From a virus (Duplodnaviria; Heunggongvirae; Uroviricota; Caudoviricetes), in the IMG/VR virus record IMGVR_UViG_2939127364_000001: a DNA stretch of 64,000 nucleotides; one strand, given 5' to 3'. Made by a program: the position numbers and the translations under genes. This document shows positions 10,164 through 43,800 of this stretch, piece after piece; the first letter of the stretch is position 1; every line of letters starts with the position of its first letter. The notes beneath the pieces are model-generated. The model was not told the origin of the DNA, did no database searches, and saw nothing but the letters and a program-made list of their open reading frames with translations.

Positions 10164-10335
10164 TTAGACACTTCCGAGCCGTTGATAATACTGGTTTTCA
10201 TATTCTGTCGGTGACATCTGATCGCTGGAACCATGCCGACGCTTACTGTTATAAAACATTTCGATGTAATCAAAAATATCGCTGCGGGCTTCTTCCCGCG
10301 TTCCGTAGATCTTTTTCTTTATCCGTTCGCGTTTC
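10164..10335 (-). pseudogene. IS3-family transposase C-terminal remnant
   Basis: Minus-strand frame ...WLKRERIKKKIYGTREEARSDIFDYIEMFYNSKRRHGSSDQMSPTEYENQYYQRLGSV-stop, typical of the C-terminus of IS3-family OrfB; no intact upstream transposase. Confidence 0.5.
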
Positions 10336-10469
10336 AACCAGCAAACAGTAGATGAAAACTACAGATATACCTGTAGCCACTGCCATCAGATAGAGTTTGA
10401 TCATGTGTTTTCCTATGTGGCTATTGTGTGTAGATGATAAGTAGGTGCTTATATATTTTCAAGGTATAA

Positions 10470-10487
10470 AGGCGTCCATTCGGACGC
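10470..10487 (-). terminator. Hairpin downstream of recA (weak terminator)
   Basis: GGCGTCC-ATTC-GGACGCC hairpin 8 nt after the recA stop; T-run on minus strand is weak. Confidence 0.35.
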
Positions 10488-10494
10488 CTGAAAA

Positions 10495-12834
10495 TTAATC
10501 TTCTAATTCATCTGTCGGTGATGTCTTCTCGCGCCTGTCATCTATTGCCTGTAACGCAGCAATGATTTCAGCTAATGGCTTCTCCCGGTACATCTCGACG
10601 ATCTGTGATTTGGTGTATTTCTTCTCGCCAATTTCCACACGCCCGCTGGCGCTCTTGGGCAGGTATCCTTCCTCCAGCATGTATTCGACCAGAGACTCGA
10701 CGACGTCCAGCCCGCGAGTCGGGTCGAAGTAGAATTTCCATGAGCATTTGCCAAACGGAGGCGCGACTTTGTTTTTAATGCACTCGGCGCCAACGTCCTG
10801 TCCGATCTTCTCTTTGCCATCCTTCATGACGGATGCACCCAGACGGATGCGCACCGACGCGTAGAACTTCGGAGAGTCGCCACCCGGAGACGTAGTCGGA
10901 TCGCCAAACATCACACCAATTTTGGTACGCACCTGGTTCAAGAAGATGATGCACGCGTTGTACTTACGCGCCCAAAGCGCCAGAGTAGGGAAGTTCGCAC
11001 TTGTCGCGCGCGCCAGCGCCGTGTTGTCGTTCATGTTCAGCTGATCTTTGTCCTTCGCAGTGCCTTCTGCCATCTTGTCGAACTTCTCAGCCTTCGAGTT
11101 CGGAACCATCGACGCCAGAGAGTCGGCTACGATGCAGATAGGGGCTGTTTCCGGAATAAGCTCTTCGTCGCGCACCAGCTTGAGGATTGTGCCGATCAGC
11201 TCTACGGAGTCTTCGAAGGTATCCGGCTGTTTGTAGACCCACTGACCGTCGTCTTCGTCGGCGTTCAGTCCGTTCGCTACCGCCAGACCAACGTCGAAAC
11301 TGTTTTCGTGGTCAAGGAATACGGCCAGACCATCCTGTTTTTGTGCTGACACCATCGCAGCCGTCGCGAGGAATGTGTTGTGGCTGATAATCCCGTTAGA
11401 CCAGAAAGAGTGTGTTTCCGGCATCGCTACGTCGAACGTTGGTGCTTCACCTTCCTCAATAGCCACGACTTCGTCGTAGAACAAGTTAGAGTCAATTACC
11501 GCTGCCAGTTGTGCAAACAGATGCTCGTTAAAACGATTCTTTCTGCCAATGAAGGAGACATAGATTTCTCGCAGTTTGTCTATTCCGACACGATCGCCGC
11601 GGCCAATAACGTGATCTACCAGAACGTAGTCTTTACGAGAGGTCTTGGTGAGTGACTCGTAGAGTGATTTCACTAAGCCGCTGATGTGCGGAGCGTAGCC
11701 TAAATAAGTGCGGTCAAAACTAATGTCCCGTTTGGTTGCCACTGCTAAACGAGCCGGAGACTCGAACCCAATCGTTGACAGGAAAAGGTCGTAGTTAGAG
11801 CCACTGAATGACAGCCGGTAATATATGTTTTTATAACCTGCGACGTGTTTTTCAGAGATAGTTGACGTAATCCCCAGATTCAGGAGCATGAGGCGAATTT
11901 GCTGTAGCAGCAGCCCACTCGCGCTCACAACCTCAATGCAGCGACCATCATTGACGTGGCATTCCAGCTCAAAGTAGCCGCGAAGGAATGCAATTTGAGC
12001 CTCGCTATTGGCGCGACGCACACTCAACGGAACCTGCTTGCCAGCAGCTTTCTCATACTCCAGACCATATTCTTTAAAAAGCAGCGAACGCACCTCTTTG
12101 CTAAACAGCACATGGTCTTCCGAGCCGTTATGTTTTCTCGTAACTGGCATCTTGTCTGATACCAGCGAAATGAGGCGGTAGTACTCATCCTTGATGAAAG
12201 GATCTGTGTTAGAAAAATTCACTGAATTTTCAGAGGCCACGTATCCGTCAGCAATTAAATAGCCCATCAGTTTTGCGATATTGGCATCCAAGTGCTGATC
12301 GCCGAATTGATGTGTGCCAACCATTGAAGGAATCGTGTCGCCTACACTGATTTTTTCAGCATGCCGCCAGACGATATTGCCTAAGTCGTCAACCACACGA
12401 ATTGGGTGACGGAACGTAGCCTCGATGTAACCCCCTGATGCCAGCTTAATGCGCTTGAATTTGCGACGGTTGTTCCATGTCAGGTGTGAAGTCTTCTCTA
12501 TCACGCCATTTTCATTGATGAGTCCAACGTTATGCTCTACATCGCGAGTAGTGCATGTTGCTTTGTGCCCCTCAATCTCAAACAACTCTTTCACTGTTAC
12601 CATTCCACGCTCCGTCAGCAGCATGGTGTCTGCGGTAACACATTTCCCCGCGCTTGGTGGCCCGAATACTTCTACGATACGACCACATGGGAAACCGCCA
12701 TCGTAACGACCGGAAATAGCTTTGTTTAACGGAGGAAAGCCTGTGTCAATCCAATGAGTTACTTTCTGAATTTCGTCGTTGCTACCGATTTTCTTTTTCA
12801 GAGCAAGTGCCAGTGCGGATTTTCCTTTTGCCAT
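10495..12834 (-). CDS. recA: RecA-family recombinase interrupted by an intein
   Basis: N-extein GRIVEVFGPPSAGK (RecA P-loop) then Cys; C-extein IFLNQVRTKIGVMFGDPTTSPGGDSPKFYASVRIRLG matches the RecA core; total 779 aa vs ~350 for RecA. Confidence 0.85.
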   Translation of the reverse strand: MAKGKSALALALKKKIGSNDEIQKVTHWIDTGFPPLNKAISGRYDGGFPCGRIVEVFGPPSAGKCVTADTMLLTERGMVTVKELFEIEGHKATCTTRDVEHNVGLINENGVIEKTSHLTWNNRRKFKRIKLASGGYIEATFRHPIRVVDDLGNIVWRHAEKISVGDTIPSMVGTHQFGDQHLDANIAKLMGYLIADGYVASENSVNFSNTDPFIKDEYYRLISLVSDKMPVTRKHNGSEDHVLFSKEVRSLLFKEYGLEYEKAAGKQVPLSVRRANSEAQIAFLRGYFELECHVNDGRCIEVVSASGLLLQQIRLMLLNLGITSTISEKHVAGYKNIYYRLSFSGSNYDLFLSTIGFESPARLAVATKRDISFDRTYLGYAPHISGLVKSLYESLTKTSRKDYVLVDHVIGRGDRVGIDKLREIYVSFIGRKNRFNEHLFAQLAAVIDSNLFYDEVVAIEEGEAPTFDVAMPETHSFWSNGIISHNTFLATAAMVSAQKQDGLAVFLDHENSFDVGLAVANGLNADEDDGQWVYKQPDTFEDSVELIGTILKLVRDEELIPETAPICIVADSLASMVPNSKAEKFDKMAEGTAKDKDQLNMNDNTALARATSANFPTLALWARKYNACIIFLNQVRTKIGVMFGDPTTSPGGDSPKFYASVRIRLGASVMKDGKEKIGQDVGAECIKNKVAPPFGKCSWKFYFDPTRGLDVVESLVEYMLEEGYLPKSASGRVEIGEKKYTKSQIVEMYREKPLAEIIAALQAIDDRREKTSPTDELED
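11377..12642 (-). other. Intein (~422 aa) with LAGLIDADG homing-endonuclease domain inside the RecA P-loop
   Basis: Begins CVTADTMLL (block A), TFRH (block B), LMGYLIADGYV and FLRGYFELECHV (LAGLIDADG motifs), ends ...WSNGIISHN followed by Thr. Confidence 0.8.
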
Positions 12835-12836
12835 GA

Positions 12837-13109
12837 TCAGGCTCCTTTTGTTTCGTTGATTCGTTTTAAAGCGGCGGATTCGTCGAATACAATCGCATCG
12901 TGATTAAGGAGTCTGGATACACGAGCGAGGATTTTTACGACCTGCTCGCTGACTAATCCAAACTCGCGATCTGTCGCTTTCATTCCGGCAGCGCCTAGAA
13001 TTGACGGCAGTGCGATGACAGCGTACTCACCGTGATAAAAGACAATCTCTTTTGCCAGTTGGGTGGGGGTGGTTGTAGCGCCATTAATAATCGATTTAAG
13101 CATTAGCAA
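12837..13109 (-). CDS. Hypothetical protein
   Basis: 90 aa ORF between recA and exonuclease genes, translationally coupled. Confidence 0.4.
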   Translation of the reverse strand: MLMLKSIINGATTTPTQLAKEIVFYHGEYAVIALPSILGAAGMKATDREFGLVSEQVVKILARVSRLLNHDAIVFDESAALKRINETKGA

Positions 13110-14098
13110 TACCTTTCGAATGGAAGAACAAACACTTCAAGGTCTTCAAGGAACGAACGGAAATTCAGCTCGTAGCACAGTTGCTCGAATGCTTTCACGT
13201 CACGATTGCCTTTGATTGTTTCGATTTCGGTAGGCGGAAACTTCGTCTCAATCAGGTTCATTAGCGTGATGTTTCTCTTGAACGCTTCGAGCATTCGACA
13301 GCCTGTTTTCTCGTTGAAGGCATTCTTCGCTAGTTTGTTGAAGGCGGTCTTATGGCGTCCTTTGTCAACCACGATTGAGCCGTCGTTGATGCCGCGTACC
13401 ATCGTTGCGACACTTCCCCATTCATGCAGCAGCTCTTTCGCACCGCCAGCACCAATGCCACCAACACCGCTAATGTTGTCCGATTTATCGCCTTGTAATG
13501 CTTTTGCTTCCAAAAATGCGCGAGGAGTAGCGAATCCTGTCAGCTCCGCAAATTGCTCAAAATTAACCTGCTTGTTTTTGGCGTCTTCGCGCAGGCTTAC
13601 CCAGCTTACGTTTTCGCGAACTAACTGAAGCCAGTCGCTATCGCCTGTTAACAGATAGATGTGTTCAACGGTTGGCTGCGGTGCCATGCGGGATACCAGC
13701 AGCCCGGCCAGATCATCCGCTTCTGCATCTTTTGCAATGAGTTGGGTAACTCCAAGCGCGGTCATCATTTTGAGGATGTATGGCTTCTGGATAGCAAAGC
13801 CTTCCTTCATCTTTTTCATATCAGGATCGTCGTCGCGATTTGCTTTGTAGTCCGGGTAAAAGTCGCGACGCTTGTCACTAAATCCATCCCAAAGAATCAT
13901 AGGTCGGGCATGGAGGATGGAGGCATAACGACGGACGTTCTTAACAAAGCCGAAAGCAGCCTGTACTTCCATTTCGCCGTTGTGCAATTTGTCAGATTGT
14001 TGGTGGTAATAACCCAGGCTATTGCCATCTACGAAGAGATAATTCACCGGTACATTCCTTCCAAAAAGTAAGGCGTCCGTAGACGCCTTACTGGTCAC
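13103..14098 (-). CDS. 5'-3' exonuclease / flap endonuclease (FEN family)
   Basis: 331 aa; acidic metal-binding clusters and a helix-hairpin-helix-like GIGAGGAKEL segment characteristic of T5 D15 / Pol I 5'-exo family. Confidence 0.65.
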   Translation of the reverse strand: MTSKASTDALLFGRNVPVNYLFVDGNSLGYYHQQSDKLHNGEMEVQAAFGFVKNVRRYASILHARPMILWDGFSDKRRDFYPDYKANRDDDPDMKKMKEGFAIQKPYILKMMTALGVTQLIAKDAEADDLAGLLVSRMAPQPTVEHIYLLTGDSDWLQLVRENVSWVSLREDAKNKQVNFEQFAELTGFATPRAFLEAKALQGDKSDNISGVGGIGAGGAKELLHEWGSVATMVRGINDGSIVVDKGRHKTAFNKLAKNAFNEKTGCRMLEAFKRNITLMNLIETKFPPTEIETIKGNRDVKAFEQLCYELNFRSFLEDLEVFVLPFERYC

Positions 14099-14107
14099 GT
14101 AATGGGA

Positions 14108-15136
14108 TTACAGAGAGTCCAGCTCTCTCAGTAGGTCATCCAGACCTTCATCTTCCGTCGCAGATGCGGTTGCTACAGATGTCGCTGCGACTGCTTCAGA
14201 CTCTTTGACTGATACGGCAACGGCAGCGGAACTTGCCTCTGGTTTAAATTCAGTTTCAACGGCACGGAGGATTTCTTCATCAACCAGACTGGTTGGTTCA
14301 GAAGCCGGTGTGTGCGCGGTTGCTACAGCCGTCGCTCCTTCTGTATGACCAGTGACAGAGCCAAATCCAGGTAGTGCCGCAGCCGATGTTTTCGCGGTTG
14401 AGGAAATTGCTGGTGCAGATGCTGCGGCAGTTGGTGCAGCGATGCCAATCAGACGACCCATAGTGCGAACTGTCGACAGAAGACGAGTTTCATCAGCCTG
14501 ATTTGCGTATGCGATCAGATCATGCTGGGTGTTCCAGAATTTATCTTCGATATCGCCTTTGTAGACTTTACGCTTAGGCGAGACGTCATATTTGGTATCG
14601 CGACCAGAGCCAGTACGTTTAATCAGGAATGCGTAGCCTTCCTCTTTGCTCAGTGGATTGCCGATATCATCAGCGATGTCTTCGGTGATTGCTTTGCAGA
14701 TATCATCGAATACAGTAGACGGCAGCTCGATTAACTGGCATTTCTCAGCATCTGCGAAATCCTCACGAGCAGAAAGAATGCCGTTGACCAGGTAGCGAGG
14801 AGTGGCACGCATTTGACCGATGCGTTCTTCCATTGCTTTGTTACCCTTGTGACGAGCGCGACCTTCCATCACCATTTCGCATAGCTGACAAGCGCGACCG
14901 TGAGTATGTTGCTCACAAATATAAGCGTTGGTTGCTTCTTTACCGTCCTCGTTCTGATACTTAACGTAGTGCATACCGAAAGTCTGGAAGAACTTACCGT
15001 TTGGGTCGTCCTTATTCGGGAAGATACGGATATAGTTGACGCCATCTTTTAAGCGAGTCAGATCAACGTTGTTACCACGTTTGGCGGCAATGTCTTCACG
15101 AGTTTTGTTAAGCAAATCAAGTAATGTCTTAGACAT
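14108..15136 (-). CDS. Putative ssDNA-binding protein (zinc knuckle, Ala/Ser/Thr-rich linker, acidic C-terminal tail)
   Basis: CEQHTHGRACQLCE zinc-ligand cluster, low-complexity linker, C-terminus TEDEGLDDLLRELDSL; position in replication module. Confidence 0.4.
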   Translation of the reverse strand: MSKTLLDLLNKTREDIAAKRGNNVDLTRLKDGVNYIRIFPNKDDPNGKFFQTFGMHYVKYQNEDGKEATNAYICEQHTHGRACQLCEMVMEGRARHKGNKAMEERIGQMRATPRYLVNGILSAREDFADAEKCQLIELPSTVFDDICKAITEDIADDIGNPLSKEEGYAFLIKRTGSGRDTKYDVSPKRKVYKGDIEDKFWNTQHDLIAYANQADETRLLSTVRTMGRLIGIAAPTAAASAPAISSTAKTSAAALPGFGSVTGHTEGATAVATAHTPASEPTSLVDEEILRAVETEFKPEASSAAVAVSVKESEAVAATSVATASATEDEGLDDLLRELDSL

Positions 15137-15253
15137 GTGTTTCTCCTTGTTGTGATTTGGCCGATGGCGCTATGCGCGTTGGGCTTTCGTTCATTCGTGG
15201 CTCTTTCGAGCTGTTCAATGATAGATCAGTACTTATTTATTATCTATCAAAAA

Positions 15254-15685
15254 TCAACGGGGAGTAATAAAGCGTTCGGAGCCTAATCGCTCCAATTCAA
15301 CAATGGCCATCTTCGACGCCTGAACGATCATGTCTCGGCGATGCGAAAAGGCGGCGACAGCATGTTTGTATATGTCTGCGATGTGCCGTGCTTCATCCAA
15401 CTTCTGCCGTTTAGACAGATACTGTGGGTTTGTTTTAACCTTAGCGTCCAGTACAGACTCGTTGAACTTAATGCCGTTCATACTCAAGTTCTTACGCTCT
15501 GTGTCGTATAGCTTTGCTTCAACAGCTTCAAGGTTAAGTTTTGCCTCTGCGACATCTCGATCTGCCTGCGCTAGTTTTGACCCATACTCCATTAAAAGCC
15601 GTGGCTGTTTACGCCATACTTCCTCAAGGTTGTCGCGGTCGAACTCCAGATCGGCCATGATTTTAGAAAAAATATCAGTGTTCAC
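15254..15685 (-). CDS. Hypothetical coiled-coil protein (possible recombination mediator)
   Basis: 143 aa, predicted helical; located next to SSB-like and RecA genes. Confidence 0.3.
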   Translation of the reverse strand: MNTDIFSKIMADLEFDRDNLEEVWRKQPRLLMEYGSKLAQADRDVAEAKLNLEAVEAKLYDTERKNLSMNGIKFNESVLDAKVKTNPQYLSKRQKLDEARHIADIYKHAVAAFSHRRDMIVQASKMAIVELERLGSERFITPR

Positions 15686-16787: not shown

Positions 16788-16790
16788 TGA

Positions 16791-16820
16791 AACCCGCCAA
16801 CTGGCGGGTTTTCTTTATTA
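16791..16820. terminator. Bidirectional hairpin terminator between HicB-like gene and dnaE
   Basis: AACCCGCC-AACT-GGCGGGTT followed by TTCTTTATT on plus strand. Confidence 0.6.
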
Positions 16821-27015: not shown

Positions 27016-27102
27016 TGGCGGAGAGTAATGGAATCGAACCATCATCGTTTGCACAATGGGACGGATTTCAAGACCGCTTGAGCACCATGCTCCCTACTCT
27101 CC
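27016..27102 (-). tRNA. tRNA-Ser (anticodon UGA), type II with long variable arm
   Basis: Minus strand GGAGAGTAGGGAGCATGGTGCTCAAGCGGTCTTGAAATCCGT...GGTTCGATTCCATTACTCTCCGCCA; anticodon loop CTTGAAA; one mismatch in anticodon stem. Confidence 0.6.
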
Positions 27103-27202
27103 AGCTATTGTGATGGTCGGTGCTGAACTCCGACACAGGGTTGTAGCAAGCCCCGCAAAGCGCGCACTACTGTAGTTGCGGCACATCAGCCTGTGCATTC
27201 AT

Positions 27203-27281
27203 CACAACGGTAAGATCACTACCTTTCGACCAGTCATTGTGCACATGAACGACGATTAACCGTAATGATCTTATCGTTGTG
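27203..27281. repeat. Hairpin element E1 (15-bp arms CACAACGGTAAGATC / GATCTTATCGTTGTG, one mismatch)
   Basis: Arms at 27203-27217 and 27267-27281. Confidence 0.55.
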
Positions 27282-27332
27282 TTGTGAAGCCAGATGCTTA
27301 TCTTCTGGTTGCTTCAAAGAGCTGCACTTCCT

Positions 27333-27421
27333 CACAACGGTAAGAGCACTGGTCTGACTCTATCGATTTACGGGCTTGTGGGTCAGTATCGCCGATTCGC
27401 CCAATGCTCTTACCTGTTGTG
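27333..27421. repeat. Hairpin element E2 (arms CACAACGGTAAGAGC / GCTCTTACCTGTTGTG) abutting tRNA-Thr 3' end
   Basis: Arms at 27333-27347 and 27406-27421; paralogous to E1. Confidence 0.55.
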
Positions 27422-27422
27422 T

Positions 27423-27498
27423 TGGTGCCGGTTAACGGGATCGAACCGCTGACATCCTGCTTACAAGGCAGGCGCTCTACCAACTGAGCTAAACCGGC
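27423..27498 (-). tRNA. tRNA-Thr (anticodon UGU)
   Basis: Minus strand GCCGGTTTAGCTCAGTTGGTAGAGCGCCTGCCTTGTAAGCAGGATGTCAGCGGTTCGATCCCGTTAACCGGCACCA; canonical cloverleaf, encoded CCA. Confidence 0.8.
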
Positions 27499-27502
27499 AA
27501 TT

Positions 27503-27589
27503 TGGTGGGGAGTGATGGAGTCGAACCACCCGAGTCGCAATGACAGTAGATTTACAGTCTACCCCGCTGCCCCTACGGACTAACTCCCC
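27503..27589 (-). tRNA. tRNA-Tyr (anticodon GUA), type II
   Basis: Minus strand GGGGAGTTAGTCC...GGGTAGACTGTAAATCTACTG...GGTTCGACTCCATCACTCCCCACCA; anticodon loop CTGTAAA. Confidence 0.65.
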
Positions 27590-27594
27590 TAAAT

Positions 27595-27669
27595 TGGCGA
27601 TGGTGGGTGGATTCGAACCACCGACCAGTTGGTTAACAGCCAACTGCTCTACCGCTGAGCTACACCATC
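27595..27669 (-). tRNA. tRNA-Asn (anticodon GUU)
   Basis: Minus strand GATGGTGTAGCTCAGCGGTAGAGCAGTTGGCTGTTAACCAACTGGTCGGTGGTTCGAATCCACCCACCATCGCCA. Confidence 0.75.
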
Positions 27670-39967: not shown

Positions 39968-40756
39968 TTACACATGAGCGCCGTAAATTGCCCCAGCTTT
40001 AGTCCATGTAGGCGCGTTGCCAGTTACGGCTTTACCAGCTGCCCCGCCGCCGTACATTGTCCCCAATCGTCCAGTAGCAGCAGCACCAGCGGCACCTACA
40101 TTACCTCCACTGCCGCATGTGTATTGAACAGCGGTAGAGCCGATCAAATATTGAGCACCAATCCCGGGAGCGGTTAGAGTGCCAGAAGTTGCCGCACGCG
40201 AAGTTGAAGCTGGCGGCCTTGTAGTGTTTGCAACACCAAACGGGCGACCGCCACCACCCATACCACCATCGGCTGAGTTACCGCCGCCACCACCGCCACC
40301 ACCGGCAATAGCGCCGTTATTGGTTATTCTTAAACGAGTCCCAATCCCGTTGTTAATAGCAGTGCCACCGGCAGCACCGCCACCTTTAACGCCACCATTA
40401 CCGCCACGGCCATAGACAGTTACACCTGCGTTGATTACAAGGCTGATATAAGAGTTGGTAAGTGAACTCGGGAAATCTAAACATGGCACGCCGCTACTGG
40501 ACGACACCAGATCCCCTGTAATGGTAACAACGACTGGCGTCGCCCCCTGGGATTTTAAATAGTTGATCAGTGTGTCTTTGTTGTAGTTATGATTCGCACC
40601 GATGCTGTACTGAACTTCTTTAGATCGCCCGGCCATTTGAGACATTGAACCAGCCGCTGGCAGTTGCACCGCCGTTCGAGCCGCACTCATCCATCTCTGG
40701 CCTGTCACACTGACAGCCGAAGACCCAATCCAACCGGGAACACCGACAATTGGCAC
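39968..40756 (-). CDS. gp38-like tail fiber adhesin with glycine-rich motifs
   Basis: GTG start at 40756 preceded by AAAGGAG; N-terminus PIVGVPGWIGSSAVSVTGQRWMS and GRSKEV...TGDLVSSS...GRGGNGG...NNGAIAGGGGGGGG resemble recalled T2-type gp38; directly downstream of long tail fiber. Confidence 0.6.
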   Translation of the reverse strand: MPIVGVPGWIGSSAVSVTGQRWMSAARTAVQLPAAGSMSQMAGRSKEVQYSIGANHNYNKDTLINYLKSQGATPVVVTITGDLVSSSSGVPCLDFPSSLTNSYISLVINAGVTVYGRGGNGGVKGGGAAGGTAINNGIGTRLRITNNGAIAGGGGGGGGNSADGGMGGGGRPFGVANTTRPPASTSRAATSGTLTAPGIGAQYLIGSTAVQYTCGSGGNVGAAGAAATGRLGTMYGGGAAGKAVTGNAPTWTKAGAIYGAHV

Positions 40757-40822
40757 ATCTAATCTCCTTTTTGATGTGAATATCCTGAATTGGTGAGGGT
40801 GGCCCCTCACCATTCACCTTGA

Positions 40823-43800
40823 TTACATTTTTGCCTTCAGTTCGCGCACTTCCTCGCGCAGCTCTTTGACAGCCTCGACCAACATGCCGATAACGCCGTT
40901 GTAGTTAAGACGCAGACGAGGCTCTCCTGACTGATCGTTATGGTCAACCGTTACCAGTTCAGGCTGAACATTCTGGACGTCCTGAGCGATGAGGCCGCCA
41001 GACTGCTCATAACGGCCACAGACCTGAATCTCGTAGAGAACACCTTCGATCTGCTCCAGCTTGTCGAGCGCCCGCTCAATTTTGCGAATATTGCGCTTAC
41101 TACGGCGGTCGGAACGGATGTAAACGTCGTTAAAGCTACCATTCCCACCACAAACCCAAGTGCCGTCATTTTGCAAATAAGCATTAGCATCAGTGCCATT
41201 ATCAGTACGTGAGTTGTTTATCATGTAAAAGCCGAATTGGCTGTTACCTAAACCACCAACAAAAAATTTCCTATCAGCATGGTCTTGTCTTAACAATGCC
41301 TGAGCAGAACTAGTTGATACCTGATTAAGACCAAAAATAACGTTTTGATCTCGCATGCTAATCCAAGAACCTGAGTTGCTGTTAATAGAAAACCTGTTTG
41401 CATATACCCAGGAATTGGTTTTTATATCTCCAGTAACGTTGACAGGCTTATTGCTTTGAACACTCCCACTCGTAAAGCGTAAAACTTGGGTGTTATTGGC
41501 GTAAACATCAAGAATGCCATCTCCATTTTGTTTTAATCCGGTATCGCTATCACCCAGAACAATTGAGTTCCCACCAAGACCATTGACCACACCCAGCCCA
41601 AGACCACCGTCAACAACAGCACCATTGCCCATTGCTACTCTGCCATTAGTGAGATTTACATAAAATGGACGAAGCGAACCTATATCACCATTTTCTCCCT
41701 GGTCTTTTGCTGTCGGGATAAGGTAAAAATTATTTTCGGAACGGCGAAAAATCATCCCGTATGCCGCATCGTAAATGCGCAACCCATCCGTAGAGCGGAT
41801 CTTAAGCTGTCCGGACATCGTACCGCCGCTGTTTTTCATAAATAGCGCATCAATCCAGCCTGCAAATCCCGACTTATTAATGTATAAATTTCCATCATTT
41901 GCCAGAATGCCTCCACCTTGCGTCTTGAGGGGCTGACTCACATTTTGCAGCGTCAGCACACCAGTCATTGTTCCGCCAGAAATCGGTAACGCACCGACAT
42001 CAGCCGCTGTGGGTTTATGAGCAGTGGTATAGACCTGCGCCCAACCAGACCAATTCGCTGTCGAAGTATCACGGCGTGAACGAACATAAACCGGTGCATG
42101 AGCACCATTCGTTCCGCTCCAGCCAATAAGCAACTCGCCCTCACCAGCAGCACTCGCACCTTTCATGTGCAATACGTTGCCATACGTGGTCGGGTAGCTA
42201 TTGTTGTACGCCTCATACATTTGAATGCCAGCAGTGCCTTGAGTAGAGCCACTTAACGCCGTTACGGGCCCGCGTGATACCAATGTATTAATGTTGATAT
42301 CGCCTGAGCCATCAAACTTAACACCATTGATGTTTCTAGCAGTTTGCAACTTCGTAGCTGTTGAAGCATTACCGTTCAAGCTACCATTGATGCCGCCAGT
42401 AACATTGAGTCCATTACCAATGGACACAGCACCGCTGGTATTATTAATTGTAATCGGTCGCAAACCGTTCCATGAACCTAATGTGTCTCCTGATGCTGTT
42501 AGCATGAAATATGTGTTCGACCCATCATTACGGATAAAGAACCCAAAGCTACCGTAAGCAATGCGGAAACCATTTGCATATTTTGAAATGATCTCGCCAG
42601 AAGATGTCAAACCTCCAGATAATGTCCCACCGGTAAGAGGTAATGCACCAACGTCAGATGCTGTTGGTTTATTTTTCGTGTTATATACTCTTCGCCATCC
42701 TGGAGAATAATCTGTGCCATTAAATACATAGATAAACTCCGCATTAGTGAGAGCACCAGAGACACTCGTCGTTGTGGCCGTTGTTATACGGATCGTATAA
42801 TTGTTTGAGCTACTACCGTTATTAAATACCTCTATAACAGCTCCTGCCAATGGAATAACGCCACAACCAGTTTCACTATTTGGTATGGTTGCACTATTGG
42901 CATAGGCCCACGCACATCGAGCAATCCATGACCTTGTGGTAAACGCGCCGTTATTTTGCAATAACGTCACTAACTGTGCTGTTGTTATTGCTCCGCCATT
43001 ACTTCCTGTAGTTAACCAACCAGTAGGAGATGCCGGGCAACCTATATCGGCAGGCCCCAACGATATATTTCTTGTGCCATCAAACGCAATACCGTTGATG
43101 GTTCTTGCGGTTTGCAACTTCGTAGCAGTAGCCGCGTTGCCCGTTGTATTCTGATTACCAGTCGTATTAACACCTGGCAAATTAATATTCGCAGTACCAT
43201 CAAAGCTCACGCCGCCGATAGTTCTTGCCGTCTGAAGTTTTGTAGCAGTTGCAGCATTACCAGTGGTGTTCTGATTACCCGTAGTATTTACACCTGGAAG
43301 GTTGATATTTGCAGAACCGTCGAAACCAACTCCACCGATAGATCTTGCCGTCTGCAATTTCGTTGCTGTACTTGCATTACCATTTAATGTTCCGGTGATC
43401 CCACCAGTAACAGACAACGGACCTGAAACTGTTCCTCCGGTTGTTGGCAGTGCTCCAATATCTAACGGCGTCGGTTTCTGATGTGTGCTATACATCGTAT
43501 AAACAACACCATCGGTAACGCTGGAAGGCTTACTCGCTGAATATGTTGGCGATGTATAAATAGAAACTGTCGCATTTGCAGTACAATCCCAATGGATATT
43601 TACACGAGTCGCATAATTGCCAATCTCAACGTAAATATCATATGTATCGCCGGATGTGTTGATCCAGGCGAAATTCGTTAATCCGACAGCTGTACGCTTC
43701 CACAAAGCACCTGTAATCCCTTTGGGGTTTCCATTGCCTGCTCGTAGAACCAGTTCTGAAATACCTGCCTGATGTGGGGAGCCAACGTTAAACCCTGCGC

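Follow-up and report, generated by a model that had tools for sequence, protein, structure and literature searches.

The stretch of DNA analysed here (the window) comprises 64,000 nucleotides (nt) of the IMG/VR virus record IMGVR_UViG_2939127364_000001 (Caudoviricetes), and the gene in question is an open reading frame (ORF) of 779 amino acids (aa) on its minus strand that encodes a RecA-like recombinase interrupted by a putative intein (Table 1). An earlier note on this DNA, made from the letters alone, had claimed a phage RecA homologue split in its P-loop by a LAGLIDADG intein, and its reading of the junctions was found to be exact to the residue. The Walker A motif GPPSAGK (aa 58–64) is directly followed by Cys65 and an insert of 422 aa, the insert ends in His485-Asn486, and the RecA core resumes at Thr487. 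The profile scan that the note had proposed detected both the intein and the LAGLIDADG domain. In Pfam, the RecA family matched with an E-value of 9.9e-37 in two stretches flanking the insert, LAGLIDADG_3 with 9.4e-18 at aa 279–356 and Intein_splicing with 6.9e-12 across aa 73–486; in NCBIfam, intein_Nterm scored 35.8 bits (cut-off 24.5) and intein_Cterm 17.8 bits (cut-off 15.6), and the remaining strong matches were all intein-containing archaeal or bacterial proteins. The predicted masses are 86.6 kDa for the precursor, 47.6 kDa for the free intein and 39.0 kDa for the ligated exteins (357 aa), the last agreeing with the spliced product of ~39 kDa that the note had expected. The ORF is annotated as “LAGLIDADG family homing endonuclease” in the closest record, NZ_JBWDPM010000001.1. 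Small ORFs of 62–91 aa on the opposite strand inside 10495–12834 lie embedded in the conserved coding region and were treated as spurious.

Table 1. Features of the recombinase gene and its predicted intein in the window.
Feature	Coordinates	Strand	Basis
Precursor ORF, 779 aa plus stop; N-extein, intein and C-extein of a RecA-like recombinase	10495..12834	minus	ORF call, Pfam, NCBIfam
Shine-Dalgarno AAGGAG, 7 nt before the ATG	12842..12847	minus	read directly in the sequence
N-extein, aa 1–64, ending in Walker A GPPSAGK (aa 58–64, 12643–12663)	12643..12834	minus	aligns with E. coli RecA GPESSGK
5' half of co-conversion footprint, GCGGGGAAA, final 9 nt of N-extein	12643..12651	minus	identical in 35/35 intein-plus alleles
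Predicted intein, 422 aa, precursor aa 65–486; Hint domain split by LAGLIDADG endonuclease domain	11377..12642	minus	profiles, fold model
Block A, CVTADTMLL, with putative Cys1 nucleophile, precursor aa 65–73	12616..12642	minus	conserved motif; NCBIfam intein_Nterm aa 65–147
Block B, GGYIEATFRHPIRV, with TxxH motif (T-F-R-H)	12394..12435	minus	conservation in relatives
Block C, LAGLIDADG motif 1, KLMGYLIADGYV, precursor aa 188–199; predicted catalytic Asp132 (intein numbering)	12238..12273	minus	
Block D-like endonuclease segment, GKQVPLSV (K-x-VP)	12019..12042	minus	K.VP kept in most endonuclease-retaining relatives
Block E, LAGLIDADG motif 2, FLRGYFELECHV, precursor aa 283–294; predicted catalytic Glu227 (intein numbering)	11953..11988	minus	
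Block F, PTFDVAMPETHSF	11404..11442	minus	P401, T402, D404, V405, P408, T410, S412 and F413 nearly invariant
Block G, SNGIISHN, with penultimate His and terminal Asn (aa 485–486)	11377..11400	minus	NCBIfam intein_Cterm aa 466–487
Predicted +1 nucleophile, Thr487, the Walker A Thr	11374–11376	minus	junction position
3' half of co-conversion footprint, ACATTCCT, initial 8 nt of C-extein	11369..11376	minus	allele comparison
C-extein, aa 487–779 plus stop; remaining RecA core including L2-like NQVRTKIGVMFGDPTTSPGG	10495..11376	minus	Pfam, RecA alignment

The insert contains the sequence features that define class 1 inteins. The putative N-terminal nucleophile Cys65 stands right after Lys64, and Cys is kept in the relatives in which the N-terminal junction is present. 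Block B reads ATFRHPIRV at intein residues 75–83 (T76 and H79); its His is conserved in relatives, and the Thr, as well as a Pro after the His, is found in most of them. Blocks F and G end in SNGIISHN followed by Thr, and nearly all relatives read HN/T or HN/S at this place (the slash marks the junction here and below). The insertion is in frame, as the extein is continuous in the alignment with E. coli RecA and the intein-less homologues are colinear with it. The two LAGLIDADG motifs, LMGYLIADG and LRGYFELEC, are those of a double-motif endonuclease with Asp132 and Glu227 as the acidic residues, and both these residues and the splicing blocks are conserved among the relatives retaining each segment. 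An AlphaFold2 model of the intein, built from an alignment of 11 sequences, had a predicted template-modelling (TM) score of 0.83 and a mean predicted local distance difference test score (pLDDT) of 77.7. Its best Foldseek match in the PDB was TliVMA (7qss; E 1e-20, TM 0.69), followed by PI-PkoII, PI-PfuI, PhoVMA and PI-SceI, which are full-length intein endonucleases. The Hint part of the model matched mini-inteins and the Hedgehog autoprocessing domain (4oz6, 1am2, 4e2t, 1at0), and the pseudo-symmetric alpha-beta-beta-alpha-beta-beta-alpha core matched I-DmoI (2vs7, 4un7) and the endonuclease domains of PI-PfuI, PI-PkoII and TliVMA. Furthermore, the LAGLIDADG cores of characterised intein endonucleases matched by sequence (E 8e-8 to 2e-7), PI-PkoII and TliVMA aligning over motif 1. 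The anatomy of the precursor, the exact insertion site and the predicted fold are thus established, and on these grounds the insert is a canonical class 1 intein with a double-motif LAGLIDADG endonuclease, predicted to be capable of splicing and DNA cleavage.

The exteins on both sides of the insert make up a recombinase of the RecA family. The alignment with RecA that the earlier note had recommended is continuous, with GRIVEVFGPPSAGKTFL of the spliced extein aligned to GRIVEIYGPESSGKTTL of E. coli RecA, and the insert separates the Walker A Lys from the Thr, a position that we take to be K72/T73 in E. coli RecA numbering. The segments GPPSAGKT (Walker A), FLDHE, IVADS and NQVRTKIGVMFGDPTTSPGG all aligned to RecA, and the match of the spliced extein to E. 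coli RecA structures had E-values of about 1e-35 to 1e-30. The extein has Walker A and the Walker B Asp as well as the catalytic Glu and an L2-like loop; it scored 127 bits with PF00154 (cut-off 27) and fell short of the bacterial RecA equivalog TIGR02012 (135.8 bits, cut-off 325.3); the region around loop L1 is enlarged relative to RecA. The Pfam RecA cut-off was passed and the equivalog cut-off was missed; the extein is a diverged phage-type RecA-like recombinase and not an orthologue of cellular RecA.

The insert is absent from otherwise equivalent genes. Salmonella phage SSU5 gp60 (358 aa), an intein-free orthologue, and Escherichia phage CMS-2020a encode an insert-free recombinase reading ...EVFGPPSAGK/TFLATAAM..., and ten other intein-free alleles came from E. 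coli, S. Typhi pHCM2, S. Typhimurium, Enterobacter, Y. pestis, Shigella and Klebsiella. All 12 read E(V or I)FGPPSAGK/TFLAT and are colinear with the predicted spliced product down to single residues; the earlier note had suggested looking for such alleles in related phage-plasmids. The recombinase gene was found in 786 records of the plasmid collection by megablast and in 846 by blastn, the latter total taking in a few unrelated recA matches. Intein DNA was present in 247 plasmid records, that is, in ~30% of roughly 800 recombinase alleles. Intein-plus alleles per recombinase genes numbered 122/233 in Escherichia, 41/92 in Enterobacter, 71/347 in Klebsiella, 6/25 in Citrobacter, 1/49 in Salmonella and 0/63 in Yersinia. 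Among 5,426 complete E. coli genomes, 249 had the recombinase and 119 the intein, and all copies were plasmid-borne with none on a chromosome. A presence/absence polymorphism of the insert is thus established. The names of the precursor in RefSeq are inconsistent, being mostly “LAGLIDADG family homing endonuclease” and also “hint domain-containing protein” or “recombinase RecA”; WP_022649903.1 is called “intein-containing recombinase RecA.”

For the comparison of alleles we took, from the roughly 800, 19 plasmid or phage alleles (7 intein-plus and 12 intein-free) together with 28 copies on IMG/VR viral contigs. The intein reading frame was open in 28/28 viral-contig copies, the full-length precursor ORF was intact in six other full-length plasmid alleles, and Cys1, TxxH, the block F Asp, His-Asn and Thr+1 were all intact in every copy examined. 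The viral-contig copy in IMGVR_UViG_3300028993_000030 has an in-frame intein deletion of 6 nt (matched length 1260 against 1266), with an open frame and normal flanks. The most divergent intein seen, at 92% DNA identity, is the intact one of E. albertii p3RM15116 (L008; CP043239.1, locus 1306 onward). The C-extein frame of this copy breaks ~110 codons past the junction and no coding sequence is annotated there in the record, so this may be an intein outliving its host gene.

The inteins of these elements are far more alike than the genes that carry them. Intein DNA was 99.2–99.8% identical across E. coli, K. pneumoniae, E. hormaechei and C. sakazakii, whereas the exteins in the same comparison were only 80–87% identical, and the extein dS (synonymous divergence) among the Escherichia coli, Klebsiella, Enterobacter and Cronobacter lineages was 1.1–1.4. 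At the same time, closely related alleles differ in the presence of the intein. The exteins of the intein-plus K. pneumoniae allele CP034055 and the intein-free Klebsiella phage ST13-OXA48phi12.3 were 99.0% and 99.7% identical, and those of LF82 (intein-plus) and CMS-2020a (intein-free) were 95.3% and 97.9% identical. The junction is marked by a short footprint, GCGGGGAAA/ACATTCCT, which was present in 35/35 intein-plus alleles (7 plasmid and 28 IMG/VR) and in 0/12 intein-free alleles. It differs from the intein-free flanks by synonymous third-position changes at −7, −4 and +3, and position +3 separates the two groups, with A in all intein-plus alleles and C, G or T in the 12 intein-free ones; the Y. 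pestis and S. Typhi alleles, for example, read GCCGGTAAA/ACCTTTTTG. Between CP034055 and ST13-OXA48phi12.3, the N-extein differs only at −7 and −4, and the C-extein past +3 next differs at +351. The 5' end of the donor tract varies: CMS-type alleles (L039, L040, L042) changed at −7 only, Klebsiella at both −7 and −4, and LF82 over at least 19 nt. Because this end differs with the extein background, several independent conversion events are indicated. No intein-free plasmid allele with the full footprint was found by megablast, which needs an exact word of 28 nt so that near-matches could escape. Thus, the distribution is sporadic, the element is much more similar than its flanks and the flanking markers are co-converted, which is the population signature of homing. 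Horizontal spread of the intein with its footprint is established by these alleles, and homing among related phage-plasmids is strongly supported by the pattern.

The window allele itself is a mosaic. At informative sites, its upstream DNA and N-extein are of LF82 type up to nt 168 of the gene, and the gene is of P59A type from nt 384 onward except for a three-site LF82-like patch at nt 612–636. The crossover interval (nt 169–383) brackets the junction at nt 192/193, which is compatible with homing-associated repair and does not prove it. A placement of the crossover within ~25 nt of the insertion site was considered and dropped, as the informative sites place it only within nt 169–383.

The element was also found to be under purifying selection. 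The ratio of nonsynonymous to synonymous change (dN/dS) of the intein was about 0.10 overall, 0.02–0.04 in the N-terminal Hint part and about 0.09 in the LAGLIDADG core, as pairwise Nei-Gojobori counts with few substitutions. Selection of this kind across the whole element suggests that both splicing and endonuclease functions are maintained now or were so very recently.

Taken together, the gene is very probably that of an SSU5-like phage-plasmid RecA-family recombinase with a P-loop intein that splices itself out and homes by means of its LAGLIDADG endonuclease. Under this model, an 86.6-kDa precursor would be translated from an operon of exonuclease, small ORF and recombinase, and the Hint domain would excise the 47.6-kDa intein through Cys1, the Thr-x-x-His of block B, the block F Asp and the terminal His-Asn. 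The predicted chemistry would be an N-S acyl shift at Cys65, trans-esterification to Thr487, cyclisation of Asn486 and a final acyl rearrangement, by which Lys64 would be joined to Thr487 and GPPSAGKT restored in an ATP-binding recombinase of 39.0 kDa. The free intein, and possibly the precursor, would then cut intein-free alleles in co-resident or co-infecting phage-plasmids site-specifically, and repair off the intein-plus copy would insert the intein with a few flanking donor nt. Because an insert of 47.6 kDa between the Walker A Lys and Thr should block the nucleotide-binding loop, the recombinase activity should depend on splicing, as the earlier note had stated; the site of the insert and the strong purifying selection on its splicing domain make this a sound inference.

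Several observations weigh against the model of a splicing and homing intein. The steps of splicing and DNA cleavage are drawn from what is known of the family and from the selection pattern, and the latter comes from the few substitutions mentioned above; the sampled alleles are, moreover, not phylogenetically independent. LAGLIDADG motif 2 ends in E-C where the canonical ending is D-G, and the pLDDT of the AlphaFold2 model falls below 50 at intein residues 133–144, directly after motif 1. Thr at +1 is a less common nucleophile than Cys or Ser, and often a slower one. Two intein-free alleles, those of Shigella sonnei p1538007_2 (L016) and E. coli pMRY16-002_2 (L017), carry the 5' half of the footprint, GCGGGGAAA, with the non-intein 3' half ACCTTTTTG. 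The 5' half alone is therefore not diagnostic, and these flanks could reflect an ancestral donor-type flank, partial conversion or loss of the intein. Ordinary recombination could also contribute to the spread of the intein.

In its strongest form, this last possibility would have an intein that splices, an endonuclease that is inactive, and a spread due to ordinary homologous recombination between co-resident SSU5-like phage-plasmids. These elements encode their own RecA and exonuclease, and the window allele, being itself recombinant, indicates that general recombination does occur in this gene; the unusual ELEC of motif 2, the degenerate endonucleases of several chromosomal relatives and the half footprint of the two intein-free alleles would also fit. 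Against it, the LAGLIDADG core is as constrained as given above with both catalytic acids kept, the intein is near-identical between genera, and conversion tracts of 7–9 nt abut the insertion site exactly in several extein backgrounds. Such tracts point to break-initiated repair, as random crossovers in flanks of 80–87% identity would not be expected to give them, and we regard an inactive endonuclease as improbable. An insertion that does not splice, leaving a dead recombinase whose ORF is kept as an endonuclease vehicle, would be a selfish insertion in a dispensable gene. This would suit the RefSeq copies named for the endonuclease, the truncated C-extein next to an intact intein in p3RM15116 and a recombinase that might be dispensable for plasmid maintenance. 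It is opposed by the intact splice-site residues and open frames of the alleles compared, by the persistence reported for RecA-like genes in the SSU5 group (PMC7969092), and by the Hint-N part being under the strongest purifying selection, which is expected only if the function of the extein, and therefore splicing, matters; we consider this explanation very unlikely. The view of the 422-aa insert as an ordinary domain accessory to some larger ATPase or helicase-type protein, the outcome that the earlier note had named as contrary to its claim, finds nothing in its favour except the continuous ORF. The intein and LAGLIDADG profiles, the predicted fold of an intein endonuclease, the residue-exact colinearity of the intein-free alleles and an insert 99% identical across exteins that differ by 13–20% all speak against it, and this reading, refuted by the last two of these, is left with a vanishingly small probability.

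The relatives of the intein were searched among 1.84 billion representative proteins. An exhaustive phmmer search gave 4,720 matches at E ≤ 1e-3 and 187 at E ≤ 1e-30; a word-indexed protein search gave only 14 matches, so the breadth of the family was visible only in the exhaustive search. Of the best 150 phmmer relatives, ~100 are RecA-family proteins with an intein at the same GK/C...HN/T junction, and the rest are other P-loop nucleoside triphosphatases with an equivalent GK/C...HN/T or GK/C...HN/S junction. The bacterial and phage RecA P-loop inteins (P0007, P0011, P0015–P0022 and others, and the contigs L049, L050, L060, L065 and L068) share with the window intein the insertion point G-x-x-x-x-G-K/C...H-N/T and blocks B, F and G, and many also have two LAGLIDADG motifs; they differ in that intein identity is only 22–48%. 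The viral contigs L049 and L050 (~100 kb each, inteins 45–48% identical) and P0015 belong to the same phage recombinase subfamily as the window (extein E 1e-82 to 1e-100), and the enterobacterial SSU5-group inteins form a cluster of their own with DNA identity of at least 92%. Unlike the complete window copy, P0007, P0011, P0013 and P0014 lack LAGLIDADG motif 1 or have a much reduced endonuclease region, and they seem to represent stages of decay in the intein life cycle. P0007 lies on a 550-kb contig and is therefore probably chromosomal.

Inteins in recombinases are known from several other systems. Those of Pyrococcus horikoshii and Thermococcus sibericus RadA also interrupt a RecA-superfamily recombinase at the P-loop of its ATPase domain and are a precedent for conditional splicing that gates a recombinase (PMC5790916). 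By Foldseek, the RadA splicing domain 4e2t (22% identity) is the most similar among the solved recombinase-intein splicing domains, although the RadA inteins, unlike that of the window, are chromosomal mini-inteins of archaeal hyperthermophiles without a homing endonuclease. In M. tuberculosis RecA, a LAGLIDADG intein (PI-MtuI) likewise interrupts a RecA, and splicing is needed for active RecA (PMC5050341, citing Davis et al. 1991, 1992). Compared with PI-MtuI, the window intein is a separate allele at a different site, and the splicing domain of the former is 11–12% identical in the structural alignment. The mycobacterial-type profile NF007072 (“intein-containing recombinase RecA”) gave 100.3 bits against a cut-off of 1024, its best stretch covering the C-extein only; the M. 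tuberculosis intein site presumably lies outside the P-loop. The “classic” P-loop inteins (mycobacteriophage TerL1-a, DnaB-b, MCM-a, RFC-a) similarly separate the invariant Walker A Lys from the nucleophilic Thr or Ser that follows it and are often found in phage genes (PMC5050341; PMC4760082), with terminase, helicase and clamp loader as hosts in place of a recombinase. TliVMA (7qss), PI-PkoII (2cw7), PI-PfuI (1dq3) and PI-SceI (1vde, 1lws) share the Hint fold with a double LAGLIDADG core (Foldseek E 1e-20 to 1e-7, TM up to 0.69) and differ in having 10–20% identity, archaeal or yeast hosts and V-ATPase, DNA polymerase or ribonucleotide reductase as exteins.

The replicon of the window is, by its sequence, an SSU5-like phage-plasmid of E. 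coli, since it is nearly identical to an E. coli plasmid and syntenic with SSU5_058–060. It is 96–99% identical per segment with few indels to E. coli plasmid NZ_JBWDPM010000001.1, in which the recombinase gene has equal coordinates, and it shows synteny and high nt identity to SSU5, pHCM2 and pLF82 (Cyrano) with RepA, replisome and siphovirus structural genes. Upstream of the recombinase gene lie an ORF similar to single-stranded DNA-binding protein, then a 5'–3' exonuclease and then a small ORF, the order of exonuclease, small ORF and recombinase being that of SSU5_058–060 in Salmonella phage SSU5. The stop codon of the small ORF (12837–12839) is 2 nt before the recombinase ATG, and this spacing therefore indicates an operon with translational coupling. 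Elsewhere the window encodes dnaE, ligase, primase, a DnaB-like helicase, siphovirus tail and capsid genes and repA. A promoter and terminator scan of 10000–15400 gave sites no more numerous than in shuffled controls, and no sharp intein-specific boundary in base composition was found (GC 48% in the intein, 47% in the N-extein and 54% in the C-extein). In the intein-bearing phage Cyrano (pLF82), genotoxic stress triggers induction and virions are made (PMC9928086), so a phage-plasmid can work with the intein in place.

Directly 3' of the recombinase gene, the window carries a cargo island (1886–10337) with an IS1 copy, a yehD-like chaperone-usher fimbrial operon (2816–7737), an IS3-family element (8061–9289), a hypothetical ORF of 237 aa (9301–10014) and an IS3 remnant (10164–10337). 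The same position is occupied by a small membrane protein and an SPFH gene in SSU5 and LF82, and by a DEAD/DEAH helicase, a methyltransferase and DUF4391 in pP59A-2. Because gene content differs in this way among SSU5-like elements, the site is apparently a hotspot for variable cargo. Four tRNA genes (Ser-TGA, Thr-TGT, Tyr-GTA and Asn-GTT) are clustered at 27016–27669 on the minus strand, and the closest RefSeq record annotates three of them (Ser, Thr and Asn). The ORF of 255 aa at 35481–36248 on the plus strand, opposite to the surrounding replication genes, is called “LEM-3-like GIY-YIG domain-containing protein” in the closest record and could be a second homing-endonuclease-type nuclease on the element. 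Compared with NZ_JBWDPM010000001.1, the window is without a ~0.8-kb cspG segment (at 16790–16808) and a ~1.8-kb IS200/IS605 tnpA-tnpB segment (at ~37420), and the tail-fibre or receptor-binding region (~40050–43100) is 88% identical or unmatched.

Whether the intein is more than a passive selfish element was also considered, and we hold this to be rather unlikely, though worth stating. Splicing could be conditional, with redox through Cys1, temperature or single-stranded DNA as triggers by analogy with P. horikoshii RadA, and it would then switch the recombinase on post-translationally during induction or DNA damage. Alternatively, breaks made by the endonuclease could turn the recombinase gene into a hotspot of recombination and drive mosaicism between co-resident SSU5-like phage-plasmids, an idea that comes from the LF82-type/P59A-type crossover interval bracketing the insertion site and from the variable cargo immediately 3' of the gene.

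P-loop inteins of recombinases and other ATPases are well known, and the architecture would not surprise a specialist; Novikova et al. count 56 bacterial RecA inteins, Proteobacteria included (PMC4760082). The SSU5-group RecA P-loop intein is apparently undescribed for this plasmid family: no paper linking an intein with SSU5-like phage-plasmids was found in the literature searched, while the supplement to PMC4760082 might list it. The finding provides a complete and apparently still-homing intein native to Enterobacteriaceae, present in ~2% of complete E. coli genomes and on many clinical plasmids of Klebsiella and Enterobacter, and the population evidence for ongoing homing is unusually clean for these clinically common phage-plasmids. 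The commonest RefSeq name conceals from pangenome and annotation studies a recombinase gene that is persistent in the SSU5 group, and the short synonymous footprint offers a simple marker for independent invasions among such plasmids. Natural intein-plus and intein-minus alleles occur on phage-plasmids tractable in E. coli K-12 (PhiR41_1, Cyrano and SSU5-like elements), and homing, co-conversion and possible conditional splicing are thus directly testable in a model host. If conditional splicing or a hotspot role were true, this would be the first native and genetically tractable system of intein homing and splicing in E. coli and its clinical relatives.

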